Shown here: positions 5,748-59,959 of the stretch, in pieces
How the letters are laid out: the number at the start of each line of letters is the position of its first letter
Position numbering within the stretch: position 1 is the first letter of the stretch
Source of the DNA: Escherichia phage vB_EcoS_HdH2
DNA length: 64,000 bases
Sequence record: NC_048748.1
Direction: 5' to 3' (one strand)
Translations under genes and position numbers: made by a program
The notes under the pieces: generated by a model
Database searches by the model: none
The model's input: the letters and a program-made list of their open reading frames with translations, nothing else
What the model was told of the DNA's origin: nothing

Positions 5748-5756
5748 AAAATTTAT

Positions 5757-5785
5757 TTGCTTTCAGGAAAATTTTTCTGTATAAT
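5757..5785 (+). promoter_or_regulatory. T5 PN25-type early promoter
   Basis: TTGCTT, 17-bp spacer, TATAAT, then AGATTCATAAATTTGAGAGAGAGGAG; matches the classic PN25 promoter sequence from memory. Confidence 0.8.
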
Positions 5786-5818
5786 AGATTCATAAATTTG
5801 AGAGAGAGGAGTTTAAAT

Positions 5819-6523
5819 ATGGCTGGTTCTCGCAGAAAGAAACATATCCATGAAATCCCGGATGAAGTCTTTAAAAAAGTTATAGAGCATCTGGAGAACG
5901 GTGGTACTAAGAAAGCAGCATGTGAAATGCTCGGCGTATCATCCAACCCAACTATGGAAAGGATGATAGAAGAGTGGCAAGATCGCCAAATTCAAGTTGC
6001 CGAGATGAAGAAAAAGAAACGTGGCACACTCATTGAAGGCATTGAGTTAGCTAACGTTATTGAGCAGTATTTATCTGGTGATTCTTTTGAAGAAATTGCC
6101 GATCGTAATTACCGCTCTGTAGCAATGGTTAAATCTGTTCTGGAACGATATGGTGCTCTACTTCGTTTGAACGATATTGTAGATCCATTGAATCCTCCAA
6201 TTATTCCTGATGATGCTGTAGCAGAAGAATTTGCAGTTGGTGAGCTTGTTTGGGTTCCTGGGTACCAGTGTATCGGTGAAATCAAAAAAGCAATGGATAA
6301 TCCTGTTGGCTGTTATCGAGTCTGGTTACTATCGGAAGGCAAACAACAGAACGTTCATTATATGAATTACGAGCTGGCCTCTGTTAAACATCTGGAAAAG
6401 TTAGGGGTTGATGTAAAGTCTCTGGGGTATAAATGGACTCGGGAAGAAGTCATTACGTTGATTAACGAAGCTGTTAAGGCCGCCTTGAAACTTGATAAAG
6501 AAAAAGGAAAACGCCGTGAGTAG
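5819..6523 (+). CDS. putative DNA-binding protein with N-terminal helix-turn-helix
   Basis: ATG 5819 preceded by GAGAGAGGAG; the ORF-track TTG at 5798 lies only ~12 nt from the -10 hexamer. HTH-like segment GGTKKAACEMLGVSSNPTMERMIEEW. Confidence 0.65.
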   Translation: MAGSRRKKHIHEIPDEVFKKVIEHLENGGTKKAACEMLGVSSNPTMERMIEEWQDRQIQVAEMKKKKRGTLIEGIELANVIEQYLSGDSFEEIADRNYRSVAMVKSVLERYGALLRLNDIVDPLNPPIIPDDAVAEEFAVGELVWVPGYQCIGEIKKAMDNPVGCYRVWLLSEGKQQNVHYMNYELASVKHLEKLGVDVKSLGYKWTREEVITLINEAVKAALKLDKEKGKRRE

Positions 6524-8058: not shown

Positions 8059-8247
8059 ATGAAAGTAACACTTCCAAAAATTCAAGCAAAGCTAAATCTA
8101 GTATCGAATGCTAGAAATAACTATCTAGATAACTTTGGTGGAATCAACGATAAAGCGTACAAAGATGCGTGGTTGAAAGAAGCGCAAGAGTTAGCCGATC
8201 TCATTGCTCAGTATAATAAAGAACTACGGGTAGAAATGAATGACTAA
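8059..8247 (+). CDS. hypothetical small protein
   Basis: ATG 8059 after AAGAGGA; ORF track begins at an upstream TTG. Confidence 0.5.
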   Translation: MKVTLPKIQAKLNLVSNARNNYLDNFGGINDKAYKDAWLKEAQELADLIAQYNKELRVEMND

Positions 8248-9211
8248 TGTAAAAGACTTTATTAAACGCTGTCAAGAAGCATATTATCAAGGCATGTCTT
8301 TAATCTCTGATGAAGAATATGATCGCCTGGTAAAACGCTTCCCATTAGAAGAAGAGATTGGGCCTAAGGGTGATATTCCACATCTGTACCGTATGTATTC
8401 TTTACAGAAAGTTTATTATAATCGTGGAGATAAACCTCCGTTTAACCCATTAGGTCAGGTAGAAACTGATAAGTTAGATGGTTGTGCGATTTCTCTGCTA
8501 TATATTAATGGCGAATTTGTTCAAGCACTAACTCGTGGTAATGGTATTCTAGGAAATGATGTCACAAGCAACGTAAGATTGCTGAACATCCCCAAAAAGA
8601 TTTCCCAAAAAGTACCTACTCAAATCACTGGTGAAGTTCTAATTACAAAAGAAGTAGAAAATAAACGTAACTTTGCCTCTGGTGCTATTAACCTCAAAGA
8701 TAGCGATGATTTCGTACAACGTATCGGGGAAGGTGGTTTAATCTTCGTTGCATATGGTATCCAGTGTTCTGCTGAATCTGTAGGTATTACAGAAGCGTAT
8801 TTAAAAGATATGCTTTGGCTGGAGAATGAGAACTTCTTAACAGTTGTTAATGTGCGTTCCTTCTTTAAATGGATTCCTACTGATGGTAAAGTTGTTCGTA
8901 TTAATGACAACAACAAATTCTTCCGAGAAGGCTGGACTAATAAATTCCCTCGTGGAGCATTCGCTATTAAAGAGGATGAAGAAGGCGAGATTACAACTCT
9001 TACTAAAGTTGAGTGGCAGGTAGGGGCTTCTGGTAAAGTAACTCCAGTTGGTTATTTCGAACCGGTAATTATTGATGATGCTACGATTGTTAAAGCGACT
9101 CTCAATAACGTTGATTATATTAACTCTCTCGATCTAGAGATCGGTTGCCAGATTCGAGTGATTCGTGCTGGTGGTGTAATCCCGTGCATAGTAGAGCGAG
9201 TATACGATTAA
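8240..9211 (+). CDS. ligA: NAD-dependent DNA ligase, subunit A (adenylation/OB part)
   Basis: KxDG adenylation motif in ETDKLDGCAISLLY; 323 aa, equivalent to the N-terminal two-thirds of bacterial LigA. Confidence 0.85.
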   Translation: MTNVKDFIKRCQEAYYQGMSLISDEEYDRLVKRFPLEEEIGPKGDIPHLYRMYSLQKVYYNRGDKPPFNPLGQVETDKLDGCAISLLYINGEFVQALTRGNGILGNDVTSNVRLLNIPKKISQKVPTQITGEVLITKEVENKRNFASGAINLKDSDDFVQRIGEGGLIFVAYGIQCSAESVGITEAYLKDMLWLENENFLTVVNVRSFFKWIPTDGKVVRINDNNKFFREGWTNKFPRGAFAIKEDEEGEITTLTKVEWQVGASGKVTPVGYFEPVIIDDATIVKATLNNVDYINSLDLEIGCQIRVIRAGGVIPCIVERVYD

Positions 9212-9383: not shown

Positions 9384-9413
9384 ATTTATATAAATTGATA
9401 AGGAAGAAATTTG

Positions 9414-10190
9414 ATGAAAATCGAAATTCCAACACAATGTCCCTCTTGTGGTTCTAAGCTAGATCTTGTCAACGGACAATTATTCTGTCGTAATAAGTCC
9501 AACTGTCCAGCGCAATCAAGTAAGTTAATTGAGAACTTCTGTACAAAAATGAAGTTAAAGGGCTTTGGCCCGAAAACTATTGAGAAGCTGGAGCTGACGA
9601 AGATTTCAGAACTATTTTACCTAACCGAAGAAGATTTGGTTAGAGCCGTGGGTAGCAAGGTTGCCGCTAAGTTAATTAGCGAATTAAATACTAAAGTTCG
9701 CGGAGACATTGACTTTGGTTCAGTTCTCGGTTCTTTAGGAATCCCTCTAATTGGAGAGGTTGCAGCAAAGAAATTATCCCAAAATTGCACTAGCTTTCAA
9801 GATGTGAGAGCTGACGGCAAGGCTGGAGAAAACTATAAAGCCTGGCTAAATTCCCCACAAGGCAAGGATGTTATCGAATTACCGTGGAAATTCTCAAATG
9901 GTATTAAGGGTGCTAAAGCTGAGGTCATCACTGATGGTCTAGTAGCCCAACCAAACGGAATAACGGTATGTATTACCGGATCTTTGCAAGATTTTGCAAA
10001 TCGAACGGATGCAACAAACTATTTAGAAGGTCTAGGATATACGGTTAAGAAATCCGTTACTAAAGACGTCAAATACCTAATCTGTGAGGATGAATCGAAG
10101 CGTTCTTCCTCATCTTATAAGAAAGCCGAAACGAATGGGATAGAAATCCTGTCGATTAAAGAACTATTGGAGAAAAATAATAATGTCTAA
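9414..10190 (+). CDS. ligB: NAD-dependent DNA ligase, subunit B (Zn-finger/HhH/BRCT part)
   Basis: Cys4 zinc finger CPSCGSKL...CRNKSNCPAQ typical of LigA C-terminal half; 259 aa. Confidence 0.85.
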   Translation: MKIEIPTQCPSCGSKLDLVNGQLFCRNKSNCPAQSSKLIENFCTKMKLKGFGPKTIEKLELTKISELFYLTEEDLVRAVGSKVAAKLISELNTKVRGDIDFGSVLGSLGIPLIGEVAAKKLSQNCTSFQDVRADGKAGENYKAWLNSPQGKDVIELPWKFSNGIKGAKAEVITDGLVAQPNGITVCITGSLQDFANRTDATNYLEGLGYTVKKSVTKDVKYLICEDESKRSSSSYKKAETNGIEILSIKELLEKNNNV

Positions 10191-11032: not shown

Positions 11033-12505
11033 ATGACCTTGTTTAACGTGCAAGCTGTAGTGTTGAAGATGCTTCTAGCTTCCGAACAGAAGCAAATAGC
11101 ATTGGAAACATTCTCAAAACTGCATAAAGATCATTTTAATGACGCTTTCTCCTCAATTTACCAAGCCGTCCAGAATTATTATAAAAAATATAACACAATG
11201 CCGTCCATTGACGCACTTATGCTTGAAGCTAATAGGAACGCCCGCCTTTCTCAAGCTCTAGTCGTCTTAGCTAACACTCAAATTCCAGAAGTGAGCATGG
11301 AACAGGCACTTGAAGTCCTAGAAGCCGAATATACACAGGATTTATTCCTGAAGCTTCTAGAAACAGACGTGCTTCAAGATTTAACAATGCTGGATCAGGG
11401 AGAAATTCTCAACCGAGTTGCCTCCCTTCACTTAAAATTAGAAGAGAAAGTAACGAATACTGGAAAAGTATTCAACGCAGATAACATGCGTATTTTCCAG
11501 AGAGAAGAAGATACCAAACTGAACTTAATCGCTCTTGGTATTTGTAATGAGTTCGACGCTCAAATCGGTTTAGCTCGCACAGAAACGTTACTGCTTGGTG
11601 GTTGGCGTGGTACTGGTAAATCCATTATCTGTTCAAACATACAGGTTCAGCAATATTTGAATGGGGATATTGCTCCATACTTCTCAATTGAGATGAAAGA
11701 ACATGAAGTATTTAGACGTAATCTAGCCATGTTAGCTGGTGTATCAGCATTAGCAATGCGTAATAATACTCTAGAAGGTGCACCTCTATTGAGATTAGCC
11801 AGAACTAGAGCTAGAATGTTTAATGGGGGTGAAGAGCTTTTCGACAACTTCGTTAAACAGTACACAATGGCTAAGATGAGTGATTTCTACGATATGGAAA
11901 GTAAGCTAATAGAAGGGTATGAGCTACATACTCCTATGATTATTGTTTATGATCCTGAGCTGTCTATTACAACAGTTGACGTAGAATTAAATAAATTAGT
12001 TGCTAGATATGGGGATAAAGTTACAGTAGCTTTATTGGACTATATTAACCAAACCCGACTTCCAGATTCTAAAACCATTGATATGTATGACTGGAAAGAA
12101 CAGATGGTTGTTAGCTCGTCTTTCAAATCTATCTGTCAGAAACATAACGTGGCTGGTGTAGCTCCTTACCAGATCGATCAAGATGGTAGAACACGTATGT
12201 CAAAAGGGATTCTTGATTCCGCAGACATGGCTGCTAATCTTAATGCTGCAAAAGCTGATAATGGTCAAGGTGCTATTATGTTTGACTTCGTTAAGACCCG
12301 TTCTTCTGATAGCGTGAAGTTTATGCCTAAAATGAACTGGGAAACCCTGCGGATGGATAACACTACCAACCTAGCAATGGAAGATATATCTCAAATGGAA
12401 GCTGAGTTCGTTATCCCTATTGAGAAGGATAAGCCAGCTCAATCTAAACGTGCTAAGAAAGACAAAGCTGAAAATTCAACAGGTGAACAGGCCAGCGATA
12501 TATGA
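11033..12505 (+). CDS. DnaB-like (RecA-fold) replicative helicase; start uncertain
   Basis: Walker A LLLGGWRGTGKS about 190 aa from N-terminus; ORF-track start 10982 lies inside the upstream terminator hairpin, so ATG 11033 (after AAGGAG) is preferred. Confidence 0.6.
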   Translation: MTLFNVQAVVLKMLLASEQKQIALETFSKLHKDHFNDAFSSIYQAVQNYYKKYNTMPSIDALMLEANRNARLSQALVVLANTQIPEVSMEQALEVLEAEYTQDLFLKLLETDVLQDLTMLDQGEILNRVASLHLKLEEKVTNTGKVFNADNMRIFQREEDTKLNLIALGICNEFDAQIGLARTETLLLGGWRGTGKSIICSNIQVQQYLNGDIAPYFSIEMKEHEVFRRNLAMLAGVSALAMRNNTLEGAPLLRLARTRARMFNGGEELFDNFVKQYTMAKMSDFYDMESKLIEGYELHTPMIIVYDPELSITTVDVELNKLVARYGDKVTVALLDYINQTRLPDSKTIDMYDWKEQMVVSSSFKSICQKHNVAGVAPYQIDQDGRTRMSKGILDSADMAANLNAAKADNGQGAIMFDFVKTRSSDSVKFMPKMNWETLRMDNTTNLAMEDISQMEAEFVIPIEKDKPAQSKRAKKDKAENSTGEQASDI

Positions 12506-13035
12506 TAACACAGGAACGACTAAAAGAACTGTTTGACTACTCCCCAGAGACTGGGGAGTTTATTAGAAAAGTATCTAGAGGCAGCCAGAAAGCCGGGAGT
12601 ATAGTAACTAGAAAGGATTCAAACGGTTATATAATTATCGGTATAGATGGTAGGGATTATAAAGCCCATCGTATGGCCTTCCTATTTATGGAAAACACGT
12701 TACCTGAAAAAGTAGACCATGTAAATAGAATACCCTTTGATAACCGATGGTGTAATCTAAGAGACGCCACAGCCCAGGAAAATAGTAGAAATAAAACCGC
12801 ATGTAGTAAGTCTGGATATTTGGGAGTTGCTTGGGATATAGAAAAACAAAGATGGAGAGTTCAAGTAAGAGACTCTAATAGCACTCTTAAAAATGGTGGC
12901 AGATTTAAGTATGAAGAGCTAGAGCTAGCTGTAAATTCAGCAAATATATTAAGGGCTAAGTTACATGGAGAACGTGCTGTTATAGAAATTTTTGATACAT
13001 CTAATTATCCTTCGCTGGAGGAGTTAAATTCATGA
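12502..13035 (+). CDS. free-standing HNH homing endonuclease with AP2-like DNA-binding domain
   Basis: HNH motif AHRMAFLF...DHVNRIPFDNRWCNLRDAT; AP2-like YLGVAWDIEKQRWRVQVR; ATGA overlaps at both ends. Confidence 0.8.
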   Translation: MITQERLKELFDYSPETGEFIRKVSRGSQKAGSIVTRKDSNGYIIIGIDGRDYKAHRMAFLFMENTLPEKVDHVNRIPFDNRWCNLRDATAQENSRNKTACSKSGYLGVAWDIEKQRWRVQVRDSNSTLKNGGRFKYEELELAVNSANILRAKLHGERAVIEIFDTSNYPSLEELNS

Positions 13036-13922
13036 GTAGAATAACAGAGTTACTTGATCTAAAAGGAATTGAGTACAAGGATACAGGCGGGGATATTCTT
13101 ATATGCTGTCTCAATCCAGATCATGACGATAAACACCCGAGTTTGCGTATTGACCCTGAAACAGGTATTATGCACTGCTTGAGTTGTGGCTTCGGTAAAG
13201 GTATACCGAGCATTTACCATTATTTTAATGAGACTCAGTACAGACAGTCCCCAAGGCTATCGCAAGTACGTAAAAAGATTTCAGAGATTAGGAATGGATC
13301 AACGAATCTTGCAATTCCTGAATCTGCTTACCTTTTCGAAGGTGATTTCCGAGGTATAAGTTCTAAGACCTTGAAGAAATATTTTGCTTTCCAACATCAA
13401 GCAGACTGGGAAGGCAGAATTGTATTCCCAATCACAGATGCTGTTGGACGCAATATCCTATTTTTGGGTCGTTCTATAAACAGTTCTGCCCCTCCTAAAT
13501 ACTTAGTAAAACCAAAACAAGTTTCACCACCAATTTTTCCTGTACGATATAATACTCCAGTTCTTATTCTAGTTGAAGGCATCTTTGATATGCTGAACCT
13601 AGAGGATAATGGTATAGACTATGCTTCTTGCTGCTTTGGTACACATCAGTTTACTTCGGATAACATTGCAGATAAGTTCAGTCCTTACATTATTGCCGGT
13701 GTAAAAGTTGTTGTTATCTTACTAGATAATGATGCTTCTGGTAATAAAGCTGCACAAGCACTGGCCAAGCTAATTCGTACAAAAACGCGTTTAACACCTG
13801 TAGTTGCTAACTTTCTTCTGCCTGAAGGTAAGGACCCTGGTGACTTAAATAAAGAAGAGATTGATATGTTAGCAAAACGTATTGAAATTTTAGTTGCTGA
13901 ATCGCTTAAAGATTTGGTATAA
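13032..13922 (+). CDS. DNA primase (zinc-finger plus Toprim)
   Basis: Zinc finger CCLNPDHDDKHPS...HCLSCG; Toprim-like LVEGIFD and LLDNDASG. Confidence 0.75.
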   Translation: MSRITELLDLKGIEYKDTGGDILICCLNPDHDDKHPSLRIDPETGIMHCLSCGFGKGIPSIYHYFNETQYRQSPRLSQVRKKISEIRNGSTNLAIPESAYLFEGDFRGISSKTLKKYFAFQHQADWEGRIVFPITDAVGRNILFLGRSINSSAPPKYLVKPKQVSPPIFPVRYNTPVLILVEGIFDMLNLEDNGIDYASCCFGTHQFTSDNIADKFSPYIIAGVKVVVILLDNDASGNKAAQALAKLIRTKTRLTPVVANFLLPEGKDPGDLNKEEIDMLAKRIEILVAESLKDLV

Positions 13923-47237: not shown

Positions 47238-48451
47238 TCTTTATCTCCCTCGGTGGAACCTTGAGGTCTACCACCTTCTTGACCAGATACACCTGTTGCA
47301 GAACCAGCAACGTTAGCAGGAATACGAATCCTATCCATCTGCTCATCATCTAAAGGTTCAAGGTTCAGCTCTAAACGAGCTTCGTTACCAGTCATAATAC
47401 CATTATTAACCAATGAGGTTAAATGTTTAGCCTCAGCTTCTTTATCTGGTGTTAATGCAGCTACTTCCTTAGTATTAGGAGTAATCTTATAACCAAAAAA
47501 GAAAGTAAGAGAACTAGTCAGTTTGTTCAGCATAGGAATGATAGTCATATAATAGAACAGTTCGATGTTTGGTCGAATATTCGCATTATTACCACCATCA
47601 AGCAGTACTTGCGGAACTCCAAAGGCTAGACAAATAGATTTATTAAACCCTTCGATGTCTTCCTTAAAGTCTAGATCTTTAAAAGAGGATATTTGGGAGT
47701 ACGGTTTAGCTTTCATACCACCATCTAGAATCAGGACAGAAGACTGACCCGTACTAGGATTATAATCGAGTTGTAATTCTTCTTGTTTACGCTCACGCAA
47801 TTTCTTGTTCAGGATTTCATCCGTTTCAAGAATAAGACCAATCACGGTTCCGTTATCGAGGAACTTCTCTTTAAAGTTAAGCATCTTAGAACGCTTCTCA
47901 AGAGAATCAATAACAGTAGCAACACGAGATTGTCCAGAAATTTGAGAATTTGTGCCACACACGTAACTGTTATCCTTTATAAAGATAATCTCATCTACGC
48001 GATAGTCTATCTGATTATTAAATATAAATTTTTTGATAAACTTATTGGCATCTGCCTCGACCTGCATAAGAGCAGCCGGGACGTGGTAAAGCGATGTGCC
48101 ATCCCAATAGATGTATGCACAGCCTTCAAAAAGTAGGTCAGTGACTACAAGTCTACGGAATGTGCTTATATCCATGAATGGATTAGGTCGTACATTTAAG
48201 AGAGTGTCTAGAGTCTTTGTTTTGACGCCATTAGCGTACGTAACAATATTATATTTATCTCCGACAGTATAAGAACACTCCGCCGCACTATCTATAACCA
48301 TATTGGCAGTTCGATTGAGAATCTCAATCTTGCTATAGGCTTGTCCAGTGGTAAAAGGCTTACGGTTAGTGCGATGACTAACTGGTTCCATGTCTCTTAT
48401 AATACGTTGACCCGGATTTAACTTTTCAGTAATCCAGCTTTTTAAACCCAT
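47234..48451 (-). CDS. portal protein (T5 pb7-like)
   Basis: 405 aa; position between terminase and protease. Confidence 0.8.
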   Translation of the reverse strand: MGLKSWITEKLNPGQRIIRDMEPVSHRTNRKPFTTGQAYSKIEILNRTANMVIDSAAECSYTVGDKYNIVTYANGVKTKTLDTLLNVRPNPFMDISTFRRLVVTDLLFEGCAYIYWDGTSLYHVPAALMQVEADANKFIKKFIFNNQIDYRVDEIIFIKDNSYVCGTNSQISGQSRVATVIDSLEKRSKMLNFKEKFLDNGTVIGLILETDEILNKKLRERKQEELQLDYNPSTGQSSVLILDGGMKAKPYSQISSFKDLDFKEDIEGFNKSICLAFGVPQVLLDGGNNANIRPNIELFYYMTIIPMLNKLTSSLTFFFGYKITPNTKEVAALTPDKEAEAKHLTSLVNNGIMTGNEARLELNLEPLDDEQMDRIRIPANVAGSATGVSGQEGGRPQGSTEGDKE

Positions 48452-48975
48452 TATAAGAACCTTGCGAATCCTGATTTTATTTCAGTCTTGACTTGTGTCT
48501 TTTCTTGAGGATTCTGTAATTTGTCTTTCTGCTTTTGAACCCATGCTTTCTGTTTATTAGCAGAAAATAATGGAGGTTCTTTCGTGTAAACCTTATGTAA
48601 TAGTTGGTGATGGTGTACACAAAGGGTAACAGTGTCTTCTACTAGCTCATGCCTATATCGATCATAGAATGCCGTCCTATTTGAAAGGACTATTTCTTCG
48701 TCAGTGAAATCCAATTGGAGTTCTTTAGCAAATTTTTTAACTAGTAGAGACACCGTATGGTAATGATGAAGCTCTAATTCTTCAGCACAACCGCAGATAG
48801 CACATTGAGAGTCTTTTTTATATTGACTTTTTATTCCGTCTCTCATAAGGGATATAGCATCGCGTTTATATTTTATATTGCTTGCCATAGTGTTCTCCTC
48901 AACTGTATGAATATAGTATACATAATCGTATCGAATTTGTAAAGGGGATTTTAAAATACAGGAATGGGATACCAA
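48451..48975 (-). CDS. HNH endonuclease (zinc-binding)
   Basis: CAICGCAEELELHHYH...CVHHHQLLH; between terminase large subunit and portal genes. Confidence 0.6.
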   Translation of the reverse strand: MVSHSCILKSPLQIRYDYVYYIHTVEENTMASNIKYKRDAISLMRDGIKSQYKKDSQCAICGCAEELELHHYHTVSLLVKKFAKELQLDFTDEEIVLSNRTAFYDRYRHELVEDTVTLCVHHHQLLHKVYTKEPPLFSANKQKAWVQKQKDKLQNPQEKTQVKTEIKSGFARFL

Positions 48976-49003
48976 CTCAGTTGGTATCCCATCCTATATT
49001 TAT

Positions 49004-54761: not shown

Positions 54762-55154
54762 TTAAAGACCATAAGCCAACGCATCAGCGATAAAACTAAT
54801 ATCCTCACCTGATACATCGGAACGGATGCCCGCGCATGTAAATACCTTCGCGCTCATTAGCTGATCATCAAGGCAAGCGGGGCAAGGGGCAACTACTGCG
54901 AAAGCTAACCCCGATTTCACCGCGTCGATGATAGTCGTTTCTTGTTTCATCGTGTCAATATAAACGCCTTTCGCCTTGATGCGGCTGGATAGTTTGCCCG
55001 TGGTATAGGCAAAGGTAGTAACCTGCAAAGCGTCATTAAAATCTAATAGGTCATCAACAACGTGCCCCGCCTCAACGTGATACCGCTCACCATTAGAATA
55101 AACTAGGACGATGGAAGAATGAGCGCGATCGAATGGAATATTTTGCTTTTTCAT
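54762..55154 (-). CDS. hypothetical pre-early protein (A2 position)
   Basis: 130 aa, downstream of A1-like gene. Confidence 0.4.
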   Translation of the reverse strand: MKKQNIPFDRAHSSIVLVYSNGERYHVEAGHVVDDLLDFNDALQVTTFAYTTGKLSSRIKAKGVYIDTMKQETTIIDAVKSGLAFAVVAPCPACLDDQLMSAKVFTCAGIRSDVSGEDISFIADALAYGL

Positions 55155-55175
55155 ATTTATAAAACTCCAATTAGT

Positions 55176-55685
55176 TTAATAAGGGATATTAAATTCTTTA
55201 CACTTTGATTTAACCCATTCTAAAAGAATAGATAAATCATAATTGCCTTTTGAAACATATTTATTTGTTATAGGGTTTTTAATTTTTGCCCTGTAATATT
55301 CTCCCGCTATGGGATCAACTTTATCAAGATAAATATATTTCGGTAGTTTATTACGCCTTTTATAATCACTCTTATTTGTCATATTAACCGCATGAGTAAC
55401 TAGGCGTAAATTATTTATATCGTTGTTAACGGGGTAAGAAATTATTTTATGATCTATATCTAAATCAGGGTTAATTTCTTTATTAAATAAAACCCAAATT
55501 AAACGATGAGCTTTATATAATTCACCATTAATCATTACATCATAATAGCCTGTCTGATTTAATGTTCCCGCTACACTTCCAGCTTTCACACCGGGCTTAC
55601 TTATTTTCCATCGTAAAAATGATGGGCTAGATTCATCATAATAAACATTCTCGTTAACTTCATTAAAATCTATTTCTTTTGCCAT
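55176..55685 (-). CDS. free-standing HNH homing endonuclease
   Basis: YKAHRLIWVLF...DIDHKIISYPVNNDINNLRLVTHAVN; paralogue of 59474..59821. Confidence 0.75.
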   Translation of the reverse strand: MAKEIDFNEVNENVYYDESSPSFLRWKISKPGVKAGSVAGTLNQTGYYDVMINGELYKAHRLIWVLFNKEINPDLDIDHKIISYPVNNDINNLRLVTHAVNMTNKSDYKRRNKLPKYIYLDKVDPIAGEYYRAKIKNPITNKYVSKGNYDLSILLEWVKSKCKEFNIPY

Positions 55686-55755
55686 TTATATTCCTCCAAT
55701 TAATATTATCTCATTAATTGGAGGATTTAGGCAAATAAGGTTTTAATTTATCGGC

Positions 55756-57429
55756 TTACTGTACAAAGAATTTACCGTTCTTAAAGTCGATCAAAGTACG
55801 CTGGCCGTTCGCATAGGTAATAACATGCGTTTGCGTCCAGCTTGACGCGCCAACGTTGTAACCCATATCCAGACTACCAGACACGCCGGCAGTGTATACG
55901 CCGCCGTAAATGCTGGCGGTGTGAGTGTGCCCCGTGTTTAATTTGCCCAATTTCTTAAATTGCTTCGGATTGCCACGGCTCCCGTTAATGCCATTGTGAC
56001 CGTGTACGCCGCATTCAATGCCTGCAATTTTAAATGATTGGTCAGTGGTCAGGAAAATAGCGTTAAATTCACAACCTGCAACCTTGCGCAGCGCATAATC
56101 TAGCACGTTGAAAGTATCGTCTTTTTCTGCAATAGCTCCGTAAATCGCAGCATTAAGGCGGTGATATAGTTCCGCGTTGGCTGGATCGTCTTTAATGTTA
56201 GCATTACGATCATCAAGCCAACGGGATAACGCCAGATCATGGTTAGATTCAACAATGATCGTTTGAGCAAAATCGCGCTCCATTGATTCCAGTACGCGCC
56301 CGGTATCGATCAAATCATCAATAACCTTATCACGTCCGGCGGCGTATTGTTTTGCTAGGAATACACCAGACGCACGATTATGATGATTGCGTGATGTAAA
56401 ATCATGCACGTCATGCACAAACTGATATTTTGGCTTCAGAATATCAACAAGCCCGTAGGTGTCACCATGCCCCCACGACGCAGCGGCGCACTCCTCATCT
56501 AATTTTTCAGCGTGAATATCGCCATATTGTAAACCTAAAACGTGCCCCGTTGTTTCATAGCATCCGGCGGGAGTGGCGCAAATATTCAAATCGTAAAACA
56601 TGCCGCTTTCGTCCATCGTTTCAAGCTGGCGAACAAAAAATTCCCCGTCCTCGTCGAACTCAACGACAAGCGCACCAAAGTTATGTAGCGCCTCGGCCTT
56701 TTGCCCTGCTTTCTGCTGGATGTAGTTTTTAAGCGTTGCCGTGCCCGTTGAATACATGCGGCGCACTACTTCACCTTTTAAAGCTGGCACGCTTTCGGCG
56801 GTGATTTTAGCCGCCCCGATTGCCAGACCTTCCAGATTAAGCGCCGTTGCAGTTTCAGCGAATCCAGAAAGCGGATAATCTGCGGTAGGTAACACGTTAA
56901 TCTCCGCCATGAAAGCAAAACGGCGATTATTTAAAAACACGTTTTTGCTGCAAATATATTTATCAAATGCAGAATCATATTTGATTCCGTCCGCGCCCTC
57001 ACCATTTTGGAATCCGTTTTTATTATAAATATACTTAGAAACAAGCAAATCAGCGCCGATAAACTGGGCATATTGTTCAAGCGAGGCTAAAAAGTTTTTA
57101 TGCGGGAAAGTATTATTCTGAATCGAGGTAATAATAAAGCGTTTGCCTTGTTTTACTTCCCAGCTTTCCACCGTGCTAGAAATAACTCCGGCGGCTTCAG
57201 GGCGGTCATCGTTTTTAATAGCTTTTACAGTTTTTGCCGCTTTTGGTTTCGCTGGTTTATTTGCTTCCAGCCAATCACAAATAGCGGTGGAATGCTTTGG
57301 AGTATCGTAAACCGCTTTCGAAATATCGTCGCATACTTCCAGTTTAGTAGCGCGCAGACGTTTACCATAGAAATTGAAGTCAGCGGCAAGGTTCAGGATA
57401 ACGGTTTGTTTTTCTGCGGAAATAATCAT
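55756..57429 (-). CDS. A1: A1-like pre-early protein, calcineurin-type metallophosphoesterase
   Basis: 557 aa; motifs GLQYGDIHAEK, VESNHD, GVHGHNG, GHTH. Confidence 0.7.
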   Translation of the reverse strand: MIISAEKQTVILNLAADFNFYGKRLRATKLEVCDDISKAVYDTPKHSTAICDWLEANKPAKPKAAKTVKAIKNDDRPEAAGVISSTVESWEVKQGKRFIITSIQNNTFPHKNFLASLEQYAQFIGADLLVSKYIYNKNGFQNGEGADGIKYDSAFDKYICSKNVFLNNRRFAFMAEINVLPTADYPLSGFAETATALNLEGLAIGAAKITAESVPALKGEVVRRMYSTGTATLKNYIQQKAGQKAEALHNFGALVVEFDEDGEFFVRQLETMDESGMFYDLNICATPAGCYETTGHVLGLQYGDIHAEKLDEECAAASWGHGDTYGLVDILKPKYQFVHDVHDFTSRNHHNRASGVFLAKQYAAGRDKVIDDLIDTGRVLESMERDFAQTIIVESNHDLALSRWLDDRNANIKDDPANAELYHRLNAAIYGAIAEKDDTFNVLDYALRKVAGCEFNAIFLTTDQSFKIAGIECGVHGHNGINGSRGNPKQFKKLGKLNTGHTHTASIYGGVYTAGVSGSLDMGYNVGASSWTQTHVITYANGQRTLIDFKNGKFFVQ

Positions 57430-57781: not shown

Positions 57782-58189
57782 TTATTCGCCTGCGGCTTGT
57801 TTTACTTCATCGGCAACGCCTAACAGCTGCGCCACGGCGTCCAACGTTTCTAATTTTGCGCTTTCCAGTGATGCCAGATCGTCAACGTCTTTGATAATGC
57901 CGGAATCAATGGCATGTTTAGCGATAACACGCACATAATGCGCTTTACGAATGGAACTGCCGCCGCCAACTTTACGCGGCTTATCGCTTTTCTGATACGC
58001 TTTCGCGCTGGTCAATTTTGAGCGAACGGACACGGGGGAGGCCGCACCTACTGCTTTCGCAATCTCTTTCAAGCCGTCGCTATTTGCGAAATCTAAACCG
58101 TTTTCATTGATTAGCTGCTGATACATGGAAACAGCCTGCTGGGTGTTTTCTTCATTCCAAGAAAATTTTGCGGTTTTAACGTTAGTCAT
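57782..58189 (-). CDS. hypothetical pre-early protein
   Basis: 135 aa; AGGAG SD. Confidence 0.55.
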   Translation of the reverse strand: MTNVKTAKFSWNEENTQQAVSMYQQLINENGLDFANSDGLKEIAKAVGAASPVSVRSKLTSAKAYQKSDKPRKVGGGSSIRKAHYVRVIAKHAIDSGIIKDVDDLASLESAKLETLDAVAQLLGVADEVKQAAGE

Positions 58190-58978: not shown

Positions 58979-59473
58979 ATCTGCGATTCCTTATATAATT
59001 GATAAGTTTACCGCCGATAGACTTTAAGATGTACCCAATTTTTAAAGAGCGCGGCGGTAAACTTTCCCGCCGTGTAGTTCGTCATTGCCGCCCTACGAGA
59101 TAAATAATAGGGGATACCCAAAAATGGCGCAACCTTATTTTTGTAAAGAAATGTAAAGAAGGCAACACGCCCGGCGCTCACATAAGTTTAAAGGAAACGG
59201 GCGCGCGGATACCACAAAACACAGCAGATAGGCAAGTAATTTTTTCATTTATATTTGCCTTGCCCTACTTGACAAAACTTAAAAAGCTCGTGGTAGCGAT
59301 AAACGAGGGTAGGCAATGCAATGGCATACCTGAAAATTTTACCGCTTTCTAGGGCGTTTTAGGCGGCCTAAAATTGATTTAACAAATATTTAACAACTGC
59401 AAAATTGAAAAATAGTTGGAAAAGGTATTGACTTTTAAAAATCAAGACTAAATGAGTTATTTTATAAAATTAA

Positions 59474-59821
59474 TTAATTGACTTTCTTTTTATATTGTGA
59501 AGGCCGGTTTTTATTGTTTTCGGCCTGCGTTACTTGTCTAAGGTTATCCCCTTTATTATTTAGCTTGTTACGATCAATATGATCAATCATTAGATTACTA
59601 TCTATTTCACCATGTAATAGTAACCATACGACACGATGTACTAAATAACATTCTTTATTAAGTCGAACGATATAATAACCTTGTGAATAGTAAGTACCTG
59701 CAACTGTATCTTTCCTAACTCTTCCCTTATTGACTTTCCAGCGTAGTGACGTTTTCGATGTTTCATCATAATAAAAGTAATGATTAAACAAGTCATAATC
59801 CATTTCTTTATATTTACCCAT
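59474..59821 (-). CDS. free-standing HNH homing endonuclease
   Basis: YLVHRVVWLLLHG...DHIDRNKLNNKGDNLRQVTQAEN; N-terminus parallels 55176..55685. Confidence 0.75.
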   Translation of the reverse strand: MGKYKEMDYDLFNHYFYYDETSKTSLRWKVNKGRVRKDTVAGTYYSQGYYIVRLNKECYLVHRVVWLLLHGEIDSNLMIDHIDRNKLNNKGDNLRQVTQAENNKNRPSQYKKKVN

Positions 59822-59876
59822 TGTTATAGTTTCCTTATGTTATTAATTTAATCTCTATTATATTATATCAAAACCA

Positions 59877-59959
59877 TTAGCAGACTACCTAATGAGTTTT
59901 TCAAGTTTAATTAGCAGACTACTAATCCCGGAAAATCTCATTAGCCAACTAACTATTTC
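59877..59959 (+). repeat. three direct repeats of TTAGC(A/C)(G/A)ACTA(C/A)
   Basis: Copies at 59877, 59911, 59941 in the intergenic region upstream of the HNH gene start. Confidence 0.6.

Follow-up and report, generated by a model that had tools for sequence, protein, structure and literature searches.

Comparative evidence for three free-standing HNH homing endonuclease genes and a conserved nicking endonuclease in a T5-like phage genome

Described homing endonucleases and the four genes of the window

I-HmuI is encoded within an intron and has a helix-turn-helix C-terminus. This HNH nicking homing endonuclease of Bacillus phage SPO1 (PDB 1U3E) has an N-terminal beta domain and a D-H...N...N HNH_3 core in common with three of the four genes studied here (genes 1, 3 and 4, listed below). 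It was the top structural match for the predicted folds of genes 1 and 3, whereas gene 4 matched it by sequence. In contrast to I-HmuI, these genes are free-standing; gene 1 carries an AP2 domain and gene 3 a domain that may be AP2-like, and gene 4 lacks a C-terminal domain.

The Seg/Mob homing endonuclease genes (HEGs) of T4-like phages and the HEGs of ICP1 are inserted between genes, next to essential ones, and are sporadically distributed, as are those described here; the target lies in the adjacent gene of a genome that has no HEG, and the flanks are co-converted (PMC10448857, PMC2330249). HNH-AP2 proteins are a recognised HEG family, to which the architecture of the ICP1 IPA-HNH genes and of gene 1 conforms, and HEGs are found clustered near the genes for replisome and terminase proteins (PMC10448857). 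The T4 HEGs, however, belong to different nuclease families, mostly GIY-YIG, and the evidence presented here is entirely comparative.

HEGs are the main variable element of T5-like genomes (PMC10644984), and nine are predicted in T5, three of which have been characterised (PMC3326045). Free-standing, site-specific H-N-H endonucleases from this same phage group were characterised in a 2004 study (cited in PMC3326045 and PMC10644984). Their genes lie in the tRNA gene region, which is outside our window, and no others have been characterised by experiment. A literature search found no published cleavage or homing data for T5 hegJ, hegG or their relatives.

The window, i.e., the whole stretch of 64,000 nt that we analysed, comes from a T5-like phage (Tequintavirus) and is 97 to 99% identical to phiAPCEc03 and T5. 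An earlier note on this DNA had read four of its open reading frames as free-standing HNH HEGs that mark probable insertion hot spots and gene-conversion activity. All four frames were found:

12502..13035, plus strand: gene 1, HEG with HNH_3 and AP2 domains, orthologue of T5 hegJ (T5.120, 'P-TflX'); from Pfam, sequence identity, empty sites and predicted fold
48451..48888, minus strand: gene 2, late gene conserved at the terL-portal interval, for a T5-type nicking endonuclease of 145 aa (annotated sciA); from a PDB match, annotation and near-universal presence
55176..55685, minus strand: gene 3, HNH_3 HEG between A1 and the T5.002 homologue; from Pfam, sporadic presence, a near-identity island and predicted fold
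59474..59821, minus strand: gene 4, HNH_3 gene of only 115 aa that codes for the nuclease part alone, at the T5 hegG (P-TflVII) site; from Pfam, alignment to I-HmuI and a near-identity island

The HEG reading held for genes 1, 3 and 4 and failed for gene 2, which is of the sciA type and nearly universal. The HNH_3 family (PF13392; gathering cut-off of 24.8 bits) was matched above the cut-off by gene 1 (32.6 bits), gene 3 (26.8 bits) and gene 4 (58.8 bits), and all three matched PHROG 99, 'HNH endonuclease' (E of 1e-35 to 1e-58). No further HNH_3 paralogue was found in the 64,000-nt window. The D-H...N...N motif was invariant in the family alignments and could be aligned to the I-HmuI core. Each of the three genes occurs in about 2 to 13% of related genomes, sporadically among close relatives and with clean, precise empty sites, as expected of HEGs at variable insertion sites. 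The flanking genes are intact, separate open reading frames with or without the HEG, and no intron or intein context was seen.

The suspected hot spots were also supported, as other HEG alleles or families fill the same sites in other phages; these occupants include the NG_A1 allele, T5 hegG, a GIY-YIG frame (L071) and a T5orf172 frame (TrudiRoth). Signatures of lateral spread and of probable target-site immunity were present as well. It is thus highly probable, in our view, that the window carries three free-standing I-HmuI-like HNH_3 HEGs together with a conserved T5 nicking endonuclease, and that gene 1 would act by the mechanism proposed below. All four genes are already annotated in relatives, and only the putative hegJ target tract seems to be new.

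The gene between portal and terminase

Gene 2 was matched over residues 1 to 145 by residues 4 to 148 of the PDB entries 9QGV and 9QGX, 'Nicking endonuclease', with an E of about 1e-80. About 20 substitutions separate the proteins, and all Cys/His motif residues of gene 2 are conserved. The PDB chains have Q or A at the second His of the LHHYH motif of the window, and these are presumably engineered active-site variants. The gene for this type of protein (sciA in Gostya9 and DT57C) has the same position between terL and portal, and both Gostya9 sciA and the TrudiRoth 'nicking endonuclease' gene are 438 nt long.

The earlier note had given gene 2 as 48451-48975. The open reading frame is present, but its likely start is ATG 48888, which follows a GAGGAG Shine-Dalgarno sequence at a distance of 7 nt and yields a protein of 145 aa; the TTG at 48975 falls within a terminator-like hairpin that follows terL. 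The region upstream of the gene is as follows:

48889..49003, minus strand: spacer between terL and sciA, in which a terminator-like hairpin (about 48961-48994) was read from the sequence; a HEG insertion site elsewhere, empty here

Several features could make gene 2 look like a fourth free-standing HEG, as the earlier note proposed. A CxxC...HH...CxHHH pattern in its protein resembles HNH, PHROG 8048, 'HNH endonuclease', was matched weakly (E of 9e-6), and the locus does take HEG insertions in other phages. TrudiRoth has a 224-aa frame with T5orf172, MUG113 and CapR domains in the terL-sciA spacer, and EH1, NR01, SHSML-45, H8, EC142 and SP01 have extra inserts of about 720 bp at the same locus. 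However, these inserts sit beside gene 2 and do not replace it. Gene 2 lies at the same position in 431 of 442 related records, as judged from coverage of 80% or more of a query with the gene in its middle. The earlier note itself had named such presence as contrary to its reading, and no empty site was seen among relatives. With the full-length match and the sciA/nicking endonuclease annotations, this makes it very unlikely that all four genes are HEGs. By these comparisons, gene 2 is not a HEG; it is a conserved late enzyme and not mobile. The real insertion hot spot there is the terL-sciA spacer, which holds a T5orf172/GIY-YIG-type HEG elsewhere and is empty in the window.

The names chosen by depositors and annotators suggest that gene 2 may make the site-specific single-strand nicks of T5 virion DNA. 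The loci sciA and sciB have reportedly been mapped within the late region (PMC3517423); our literature search found no paper describing the 9QGV/9QGX protein and no usable gene-level identification of sciA. The published nick consensus RGCGCRGG (R/GCGCRGG) was not enriched in the window, with 5 matches against 2.3 expected and as many in 12 of 100 shuffles, and the count is uninformative. We also considered a terminase-associated HNH packaging factor of the HK97 gp74 type, which has a canonical HNH domain (PF01844 type) and is needed for cos cleavage. Gene 2 does adjoin terL. However, the genomes of T5-type phages end in long terminal repeats and not in cos sites, and no Pfam family, HNH or other, matched gene 2; the comparison gave no support for this type. 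Gene 2 is best treated as a core late enzyme, and it should not be counted as mobile.

Genes 3 and 4 at the A1 junction and the hegG site

Gene 3 lies beside A1, as had been noted, whereas its other neighbour is not in the A2 position: the frame at 54762-55154 is the T5.002 homologue, and A2 is at 57782-58189. The cassette spans about 55192-55764, and a near-identity island covers 55163-55690. Gene 3 was found in 17 of 285 related records, and it is 99.2 to 99.8% identical in nucleotides to its counterparts in H8, LVR16A and SHSML-45, with flanks of 82 to 93%. The last codons of A1 (the last ~8 nt) change from FA-stop to FVQ-stop in all four gene 3 carriers compared and in none of 24 other genomes, as a target-site difference or co-conversion tract linked to gene 3 would; the A1 3' end, ...TTTGCGTAA, is a candidate target.

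The AlphaFold2 model of gene 3 (pLDDT of 90) had I-HmuI 1U3E as its top fold match (probability of 1.00, E of 1.4e-3), and D77, H78, N91 and N103 are invariant in the family. The alignment used for modelling came mostly from a search with the gene 4 protein, since the gene 3 search gave five relatives. In the model, the C-terminal domain consists of three strands and a helix, and it aligns with AP2-bearing relatives; on this topology and alignment we call it AP2-like. Foldseek gave only weak matches for this domain, and the hhalign alignment with an HNH-AP2 profile stopped after the nuclease domain.

T4 HEGs are known to have hairpins that sequester the ribosome-binding site. A comparable element precedes gene 3:

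55692..55725, minus strand: 14-bp stem-loop just upstream of gene 3, with the GGAGG Shine-Dalgarno sequence in its 3' arm; from RNA folding and conservation

The predicted folding energy was -22.9 kcal/mol (z of -4.9), a value that none of 200 shuffles reached, and the stem-loop is kept in three other carriers, with a G-U-compatible change. It may be a translational control element, in which the hairpin would sequester the ribosome-binding site of gene 3.

Genes 3 and 4 had been called paralogues, and they are indeed 45% identical over 110 aa (E of 3e-29). Gene 4 was found in about 10 of 521 related records and lies in a near-identity island of 620 bp (about 59338-59959); the gene is 99.7% and the island 99.2% identical in nucleotides to vB_Sen_I1, with flanks of 84 to 90%. 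By sequence alignment, gene 4 corresponds to I-HmuI residues 12 to 103 (E of 1.4e-5), and D79, H80, N87/88, N92 and N101 are invariant in its family. A promoter scan around the gene gave 9 sites against 6.4 in shuffles, which is not above expectation.

The T5 gene hegG (T5.010, in the terminal repeat) is related to both genes. It shares the site of gene 4, between the homologues of T5.008/009 and T5.011, yet its identity to gene 4 (57%) covers only the first 81 aa. In contrast, it resembles gene 3 over the full length, with about 54% identity, although its site differs from the A1/T5.002 junction, where T5 has the unrelated T5.003. T5.003 was considered as a remnant of gene 3 and rejected (BLASTP E of at least 0.13, no Pfam match).

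The short form of gene 4 could be a decaying hegG-type remnant that has lost its DNA-binding domain and no longer homes, in which case the island would come from ordinary recombination. It has 115 aa against 172 aa in T5 hegG, lacks the C-terminal ~57 aa of the latter, and is no longer similar to it after the HNH motif. No remnant of the hegG C-terminal domain was found downstream. However, gene 4 outscores genes 1 and 3 for HNH_3, and the 99.2% identity of the 620-bp island to vB_Sen_I1 within 84 to 90% flanks points to recent transfer of the cassette itself. Short forms (106 to 115 aa) also occur in two clusters that are about 50% identical to each other; because both clusters end at the same point, the nuclease-only architecture would seem to be maintained. 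We therefore consider decay possible, although doubtful. Site specificity is doubtful for gene 4, since it has no recognisable DNA-binding domain; such short forms might be guided to a target by a partner protein, or the N-terminal domain might suffice.

Genes 3 and 4 thus form islands of 99 to 100% identity in backgrounds of 82 to 93%, indicating recent lateral spread. Both are located in the terminal repeat, i.e., in the pre-early region of first-step transfer, and they would have spread recently and in the same general way as is proposed below for gene 1.

Gene 1 and the 5' end of the primase gene

Gene 1 had been described as wedged between helicase and primase with ATGA overlaps on both sides, and these overlaps are real: the helicase stop is at 12502-12505 and the primase start is at 13032-13035, as read from the sequence. 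The insert is 530 bp long (12502-13031), with a boundary that is ambiguous over the repeated ATGA. At the empty sites of chee24, DT571/2 and Sepoy, the alignment shows a gap of 530 bp and the ATGA overlap is kept directly between helicase and primase; the junction of HEG-less phages such as chee24 and DT571/2 includes ...GAACTACTTGATCTGAAAGGCATTGAATATAAAGACACAGGTGGGGACATCCTCATC.... Gene 1 was found in about 59 of 443 related records (about 13%). More distant relatives, with primases 36 to 72% identical, have no gene 1 homologue, and in those with 57 to 72% identical primases the helicase and primase genes are directly adjacent or within 30 nt of each other.

The assignment as an HNH/AP2-type gene was well founded in its HNH_3 part. 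The AP2 part scored 14.2 bits, short of the 33.3 that Pfam requires, yet it is supported by homologues that bear PF00847 and by the predicted fold. The AlphaFold2 model (pLDDT of 96) had I-HmuI 1U3E as its top match (Foldseek probability of 1.00, E of 5e-4), and the C-terminus of the model matched the AP2 domains 1GCC and 7ET5, with a TMt of 0.74 to 1GCC. H73 and N97 are invariant in the family, and D72, N81 and N85 are nearly so. A PDB sequence search gave no significant relative of gene 1.

T5 hegJ shares the site of gene 1, the ATGA overlaps with the D6 helicase and the primase, and the length of 177 aa. The two are 97% identical in amino acids and 92.6% in nucleotides, with 34 synonymous and 5 non-synonymous differences, whereas the silent-site haplotype of the linked primase is unlike that of the window. 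Gostya9 annotates its hegJ gene as 'HNH nicking homing endonuclease F-TflVIII'. The dN/dS of gene 1 against the T5 allele is 0.03, and all eight alleles are intact at 177 aa; gene 1 is under strong purifying selection. The alleles have a dS of 0.39 to 0.78 from each other, far above the flanks (97 to 99% identical). Because its alleles are far more diverged than the flanks, gene 1 is an old resident; it may still be mobile at the present day.

Two short features connect gene 1 with the primase gene:

13017..13023, plus strand: GGAGGAG, putative Shine-Dalgarno sequence of the primase gene, inside the 3' end of gene 1; read from the sequence
13049..13106, plus strand: silent-substitution tract over primase codons about 6 to 25; from SNP association, with a possible role in recognition and immunity or in co-conversion

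The GGAGGAG ends 8 nt before the primase ATG. It is missing at the empty sites, in which an ATGA couples the start of the primase gene to the end of the helicase gene. Gene 1 is inserted exactly at the helicase/primase border, where it would borrow the translational coupling of the primase to the helicase stop and supply the primase with a new ribosome-binding site.

Such integration might mean that gene 1 has been domesticated, i.e., that it is no longer mainly selfish and is kept by selection on the phage. The very low dN/dS, the intact alleles, their age relative to the flanks, and the ATGA coupling into the replication operon with provision of the primase Shine-Dalgarno sequence would all fit. 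However, only about 13% of related genomes carry gene 1, and the rest keep a functional direct helicase-primase junction; an actively homing HEG is also expected to show purifying selection. We regard domestication as improbable on these grounds, and equally so the roles that it might have, for example in replication or in excluding co-infecting relatives through damage to their primase gene. Exclusion of competitors and homing are two outcomes of one cleavage activity and are not exclusive.

A dense block of silent changes at primase nt +17 to +74 was present in all HEG-bearing and in no HEG-less genomes (9 and 18 genomes, respectively). Over about 3.3 kb there were 757 variable columns, and all those with Fisher p<1e-3 fell at primase +18 to +71; positions +50, +65 and +68 were perfectly linked to gene 1 (9 of 9 carriers against 0 of 18). 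The same SNP test gave no comparable HEG-linked tract on the helicase side. The changes are synonymous, save one exception in one genome, and form at least four haplotypes. The window has 14 differences in the 58 nt of the tract against 9 in 325 nt and then 14 in 488 nt further on.

The tract is likely the target and immunity tract of the gene 1 endonuclease. In a mixed infection, the enzyme would most likely recognise the naive primase 5' end (about +17 to +74) and would then nick or cut the gene, either a nick or a double-strand cut being conceivable. Recombinational repair off the HEG-bearing genome would copy the HEG together with the neighbouring silent block, and this block would make carriers immune to their own enzyme.

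The same tract could arise otherwise, through selection on mRNA folding and translation initiation once the primase had acquired its new start context, or as hitch-hiking donor DNA. The primase of carriers uses a Shine-Dalgarno sequence inside the HEG, so that its 5' mRNA context differs, and each HEG allele tends to come with its own haplotype, which linked donor DNA would also do. Against this, carriers have 8 to 14 changes in the 58 nt of the tract and about 3% beyond it, and the at least four haplotypes alter the same codons, with +50, +65 and +68 changed in every carrier. The HEG-less sequence, moreover, is almost invariant in 18 genomes, and the helicase side is without such a tract. Linkage over only about 75 nt amid free recombination is also what avoidance of self-cleavage predicts. 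We thus think it unlikely that the tract has nothing to do with target and immunity, although mRNA-structure selection at the re-engineered primase start could account for part of it. That the block at 13049-13106 marks the recognition site of a hegJ-type HNH-AP2 enzyme, together with the immunity mutations of its carriers, is the reading that we favour, with moderate confidence.

The main value of these results is the correct annotation of the four genes. As selfish HEGs, genes 1, 3 and 4 explain local mosaicism in the T5-like genomes that are used for phage therapy and biocontrol. A useful by-product is a prediction of where hegJ cuts and how its carriers escape. If it is true, the tract gives a ready pair of substrate and resistant allele for a hegJ-type endonuclease, and with it homing beyond the tRNA region could for the first time be demonstrated in T5-like phages, both biochemically and genetically. 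T5 could then become a second system, after T4 and ICP1, for the homing of free-standing HEGs beside replisome genes.

Presence and domain content of the four genes

The helicase-primase segment of the window matched 443 phage records, with 97 to 99% identity to the Escherichia phages phiAPCEc03 and T5. This identifies the window as a Tequintavirus-type genome; it spans replication genes, late genes and the pre-early region, which makes up the terminal repeat. All four open reading frames (ORFs) that the earlier note had read as free-standing HNH homing endonuclease genes (HEGs) were found where it had placed them. Each gene, with about 500 bp of flank per side, was searched against 50,697 phage records.

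Genes followed up, with carriage among the records matching each query
12502-13035, plus strand: gene 1, HNH_3 and AP2 gene between helicase and primase, orthologue of T5 hegJ; about 59 of 443 records
48451-48888, minus strand: gene 2, between terL and portal, annotated sciA in relatives; 431 of 442 records
55176-55685, minus strand: gene 3, HNH_3 gene; 17 of 285 records
59474-59821, minus strand: gene 4, HNH_3 gene; about 10 of 521 records

Genes 1, 3 and 4 reached the Pfam gathering score for HNH_3 (PF13392) and were assigned in PHROGs to phrog_99 ("HNH endonuclease"). Gene 2 had no match in the Pfam scan and fell into phrog_3497 (unknown function); its HNH match there was only weak. Genes 3 and 4 are indeed paralogues (45% identity, E = 3e-29), with gene 1 a more distant relative (30%, E = 3e-11), and phmmer over all six-frame ORFs recovered no further family members in the window.

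The AP2 match in gene 1 was below the Pfam threshold (14.2 bits); PF00847 occurs alongside PF13392 in many of its full-length homologues. The AlphaFold2 model (mean pLDDT 96) showed a nuclease domain followed by three strands and a long helix, and Foldseek returned I-HmuI (1U3E) first and AP2 domains next (WRINKLED1, TEM1 and AtERF1, the last with a target-normalised TM of 0.74). HNH proteins with a C-terminal AP2 domain are a recognised HEG family (PMC10448857). The gene 3 model was also good (pLDDT 90), with I-HmuI as first match; its C-terminal domain, three strands and a helix, could be aligned with AP2-bearing relatives, and neither hhalign nor Foldseek recovered it with useful significance. 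The gene 4 alignment covers I-HmuI residues 12-103, and the gene ends a few residues past the HNH motif.

The observation was thus partly confirmed and its interpretation partly supported: genes 1, 3 and 4 are HEGs, and gene 2, which matches nicking endonucleases and is nearly always present, is not. Neither the kind of finding nor its details are new: hegJ and hegG have been annotated in T5 since the genome publication, and for genes 1, 3 and 4 there are deposited proteins, either the same or with 97-99% identity, that are named HNH or homing endonucleases. HEGs have been described as the chief source of variation between T5-like genomes (PMC10644984).

Gene 2 and the terL-sciA spacer

The 145-aa product of gene 2, read from the ATG at 48888 with GAGGAG 7 nt upstream, matched PDB 9QGV and 9QGX end to end (E about 1e-80), both named "Nicking endonuclease". 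The earlier start, a TTG at 48975, lies inside a hairpin immediately after terL. The 438-nt gene at this position in Gostya9 is "sciA, nicking site-specific endonuclease", and the BASEL phages call the counterpart "nicking endonuclease". T5-type virion DNA carries site-specific nicks, for which sciA and sciB, mapped to the late region, are responsible (PMC3517423; PMC10644984). A literature search found no publication on the solved structure, and the function was therefore assigned through the names given by depositors and annotators, which make gene 2 a putative nicking endonuclease of T5-type DNA.

The earlier note treated gene 2 as a mobile insertion while naming universal presence at one position as an argument against that; with the gene in 431 of 442 records, this view fails. 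TrudiRoth has a 224-aa ORF between terL and the nicking endonuclease gene (L143 1229-1903; window equivalent 48889-49003), a putative HEG with T5orf172, MUG113 and CapR domains, and putative HEGs of this type occupy the site in several T5-like phages. Similar additional inserts of about 720 bp were seen in several other phages. The proposed portal-terminase hot spot therefore holds for the terL-sciA spacer, not for gene 2 itself; in the window the spacer is empty, with nothing but a terminator-like hairpin.

Genes 3 and 4 in the pre-early region

The annotated order in T5 is dmp, T5.002, T5.003, A1, T5.005, A2, T5.007-009, hegG, T5.011. Gene 3 lies between A1 and a T5.002 homologue, which had been mislabelled as the A2-position gene; A2 is at 57782-58189. 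The A1/T5.002 junction exists in at least four states: it is empty or holds gene 3, a T5.003-like insert or a different one of about 290 bp. T5.003 and gene 3 are not related. At the nucleotide level, gene 3 of the window and its counterparts in H8, LVR16A and SHSML-45 share 99.2-99.8% identity, compared with only 82-93% for the neighbouring homologues of A1 and T5.002. Its left junction is sharp, the difference being limited to the last ~8 nt of A1 (window 55756-55764), where FA-stop becomes FVQ-stop (...FFA versus ...FFVQ) in 4/4 gene 3 carriers and 0/24 others. A1 is an essential pre-early gene, and the insertion therefore replaced its final codons. Directly upstream of gene 3, a 14-bp stem-loop pairs the GGAGG Shine-Dalgarno (-22.9 kcal/mol, z = -4.9), a known restraint on HEG translation in T4.

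At the T5 hegG site the window has gene 4, which resembles hegG (57% identity) over its first 81 residues only and has 115 aa against 172. The 620-bp island containing it is 99.2% identical to vB_Sen_I1, the flanks 84-90%. Nuclease-only HNH_3 short forms of 106-115 aa (homologous proteins P0123-P0125, P0134, P0135 and P0139) fall into two clusters with about 50% identity between them, and in both the proteins end 7-10 residues past the ENNKN motif. This common endpoint suggests that the short forms are a maintained architecture, not independent truncations. Just upstream of gene 4, on the minus strand at about window 59870-59925, two direct-repeat copies of the 12-nt motif TAGTCTGCTAAT are present, and a consensus promoter scan of the region gave a count no higher than the shuffled expectation.

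In six relatives' loci (L086, L088, L091, L097, L116 and L117), a further HNH_3 paralogue with 34-38% identity to genes 3 and 4 lies on the opposite strand at about 5750-6100, just beyond dmp by the terminal-repeat boundary; nothing is present at this position in the window. Because genes 3 and 4 lie within the terminal repeat, as judged from the T5 annotation, each virion genome would contain two copies of each, which would enter the cell with the first-step-transfer DNA.

Gene 1 and the adjacent primase tract

The sequence bears out both overlaps claimed for gene 1: ATGA at 12502-12505 joins the helicase stop to its start, and ATGA at 13032-13035 joins its stop to the primase start. Its 3' end contains GGAGGAG 8 nt before the primase ATG. 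Against three empty-site T5-like genomes, the comparison proposed earlier, gene 1 corresponds to 530 inserted bp (12502-13031), and where these are missing, helicase and primase overlap each other by ATGA. The remaining gene 1-query records matched in two pieces spanning exactly 1006 bp in total, that is, the empty site. Elsewhere in the window, the NAD-dependent DNA ligase is split between two ORFs (8240-9211 and 9411-10190) that lie 200 bp apart; T5 ligA/ligB are arranged likewise, with annotated promoters in the spacer.

Among 78 IMG/VR loci collected via primase, 26 were close relatives, 8 of them with gene 1; the more distant ones (primase 36-72% identical) had no gene 1 homologue at the site. 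At 57-72% primase identity, helicase and primase were directly adjacent or at most 30 nt apart. In one metagenomic relative (L071, primase about 37% identical), a 253-aa GIY-YIG ORF (765-1526; PF01541, 22.7 bits, barely over threshold) lies directly upstream of primase, so that in a distant lineage the junction attracts another HEG family. In NG_A1 the gene 1 site holds an allele with 67.5% identity. The first ~21 nt of primase, ATGAGTAGAATAACAGAACTA, form the start of this allele (L006 803-830 versus window 13032-13055), whose 5' end was apparently exchanged by recombination with the primase start next to it. All eight alleles are intact, and gene 1 differs from the T5 allele by 34 synonymous and 5 non-synonymous changes (dN/dS 0.03); it is under strong purifying selection.

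We found no prior description of a hegJ-linked silent-site tract in primase. In an association test over 3.3 kb (757 variable columns) with 9 carriers (8 relatives and the window) and 18 non-carriers, columns with Fisher p<1e-3 were confined to primase nt +18 to +71, with perfect association at +50, +65 and +68 and none on the helicase side or past about +120. The tract changes are third-position and synonymous, except for E-to-D in one genome. At least four haplotypes go with the HEG allele, and the 18 naive genomes are nearly invariant over the tract. There, 14 of 58 nt are changed in the window, versus 9/325 and 14/488 further on. This pattern is expected if the gene 1 enzyme recognises the 5' end of the naive primase gene; silent changes travelling with the HEG would then keep carriers immune to it.
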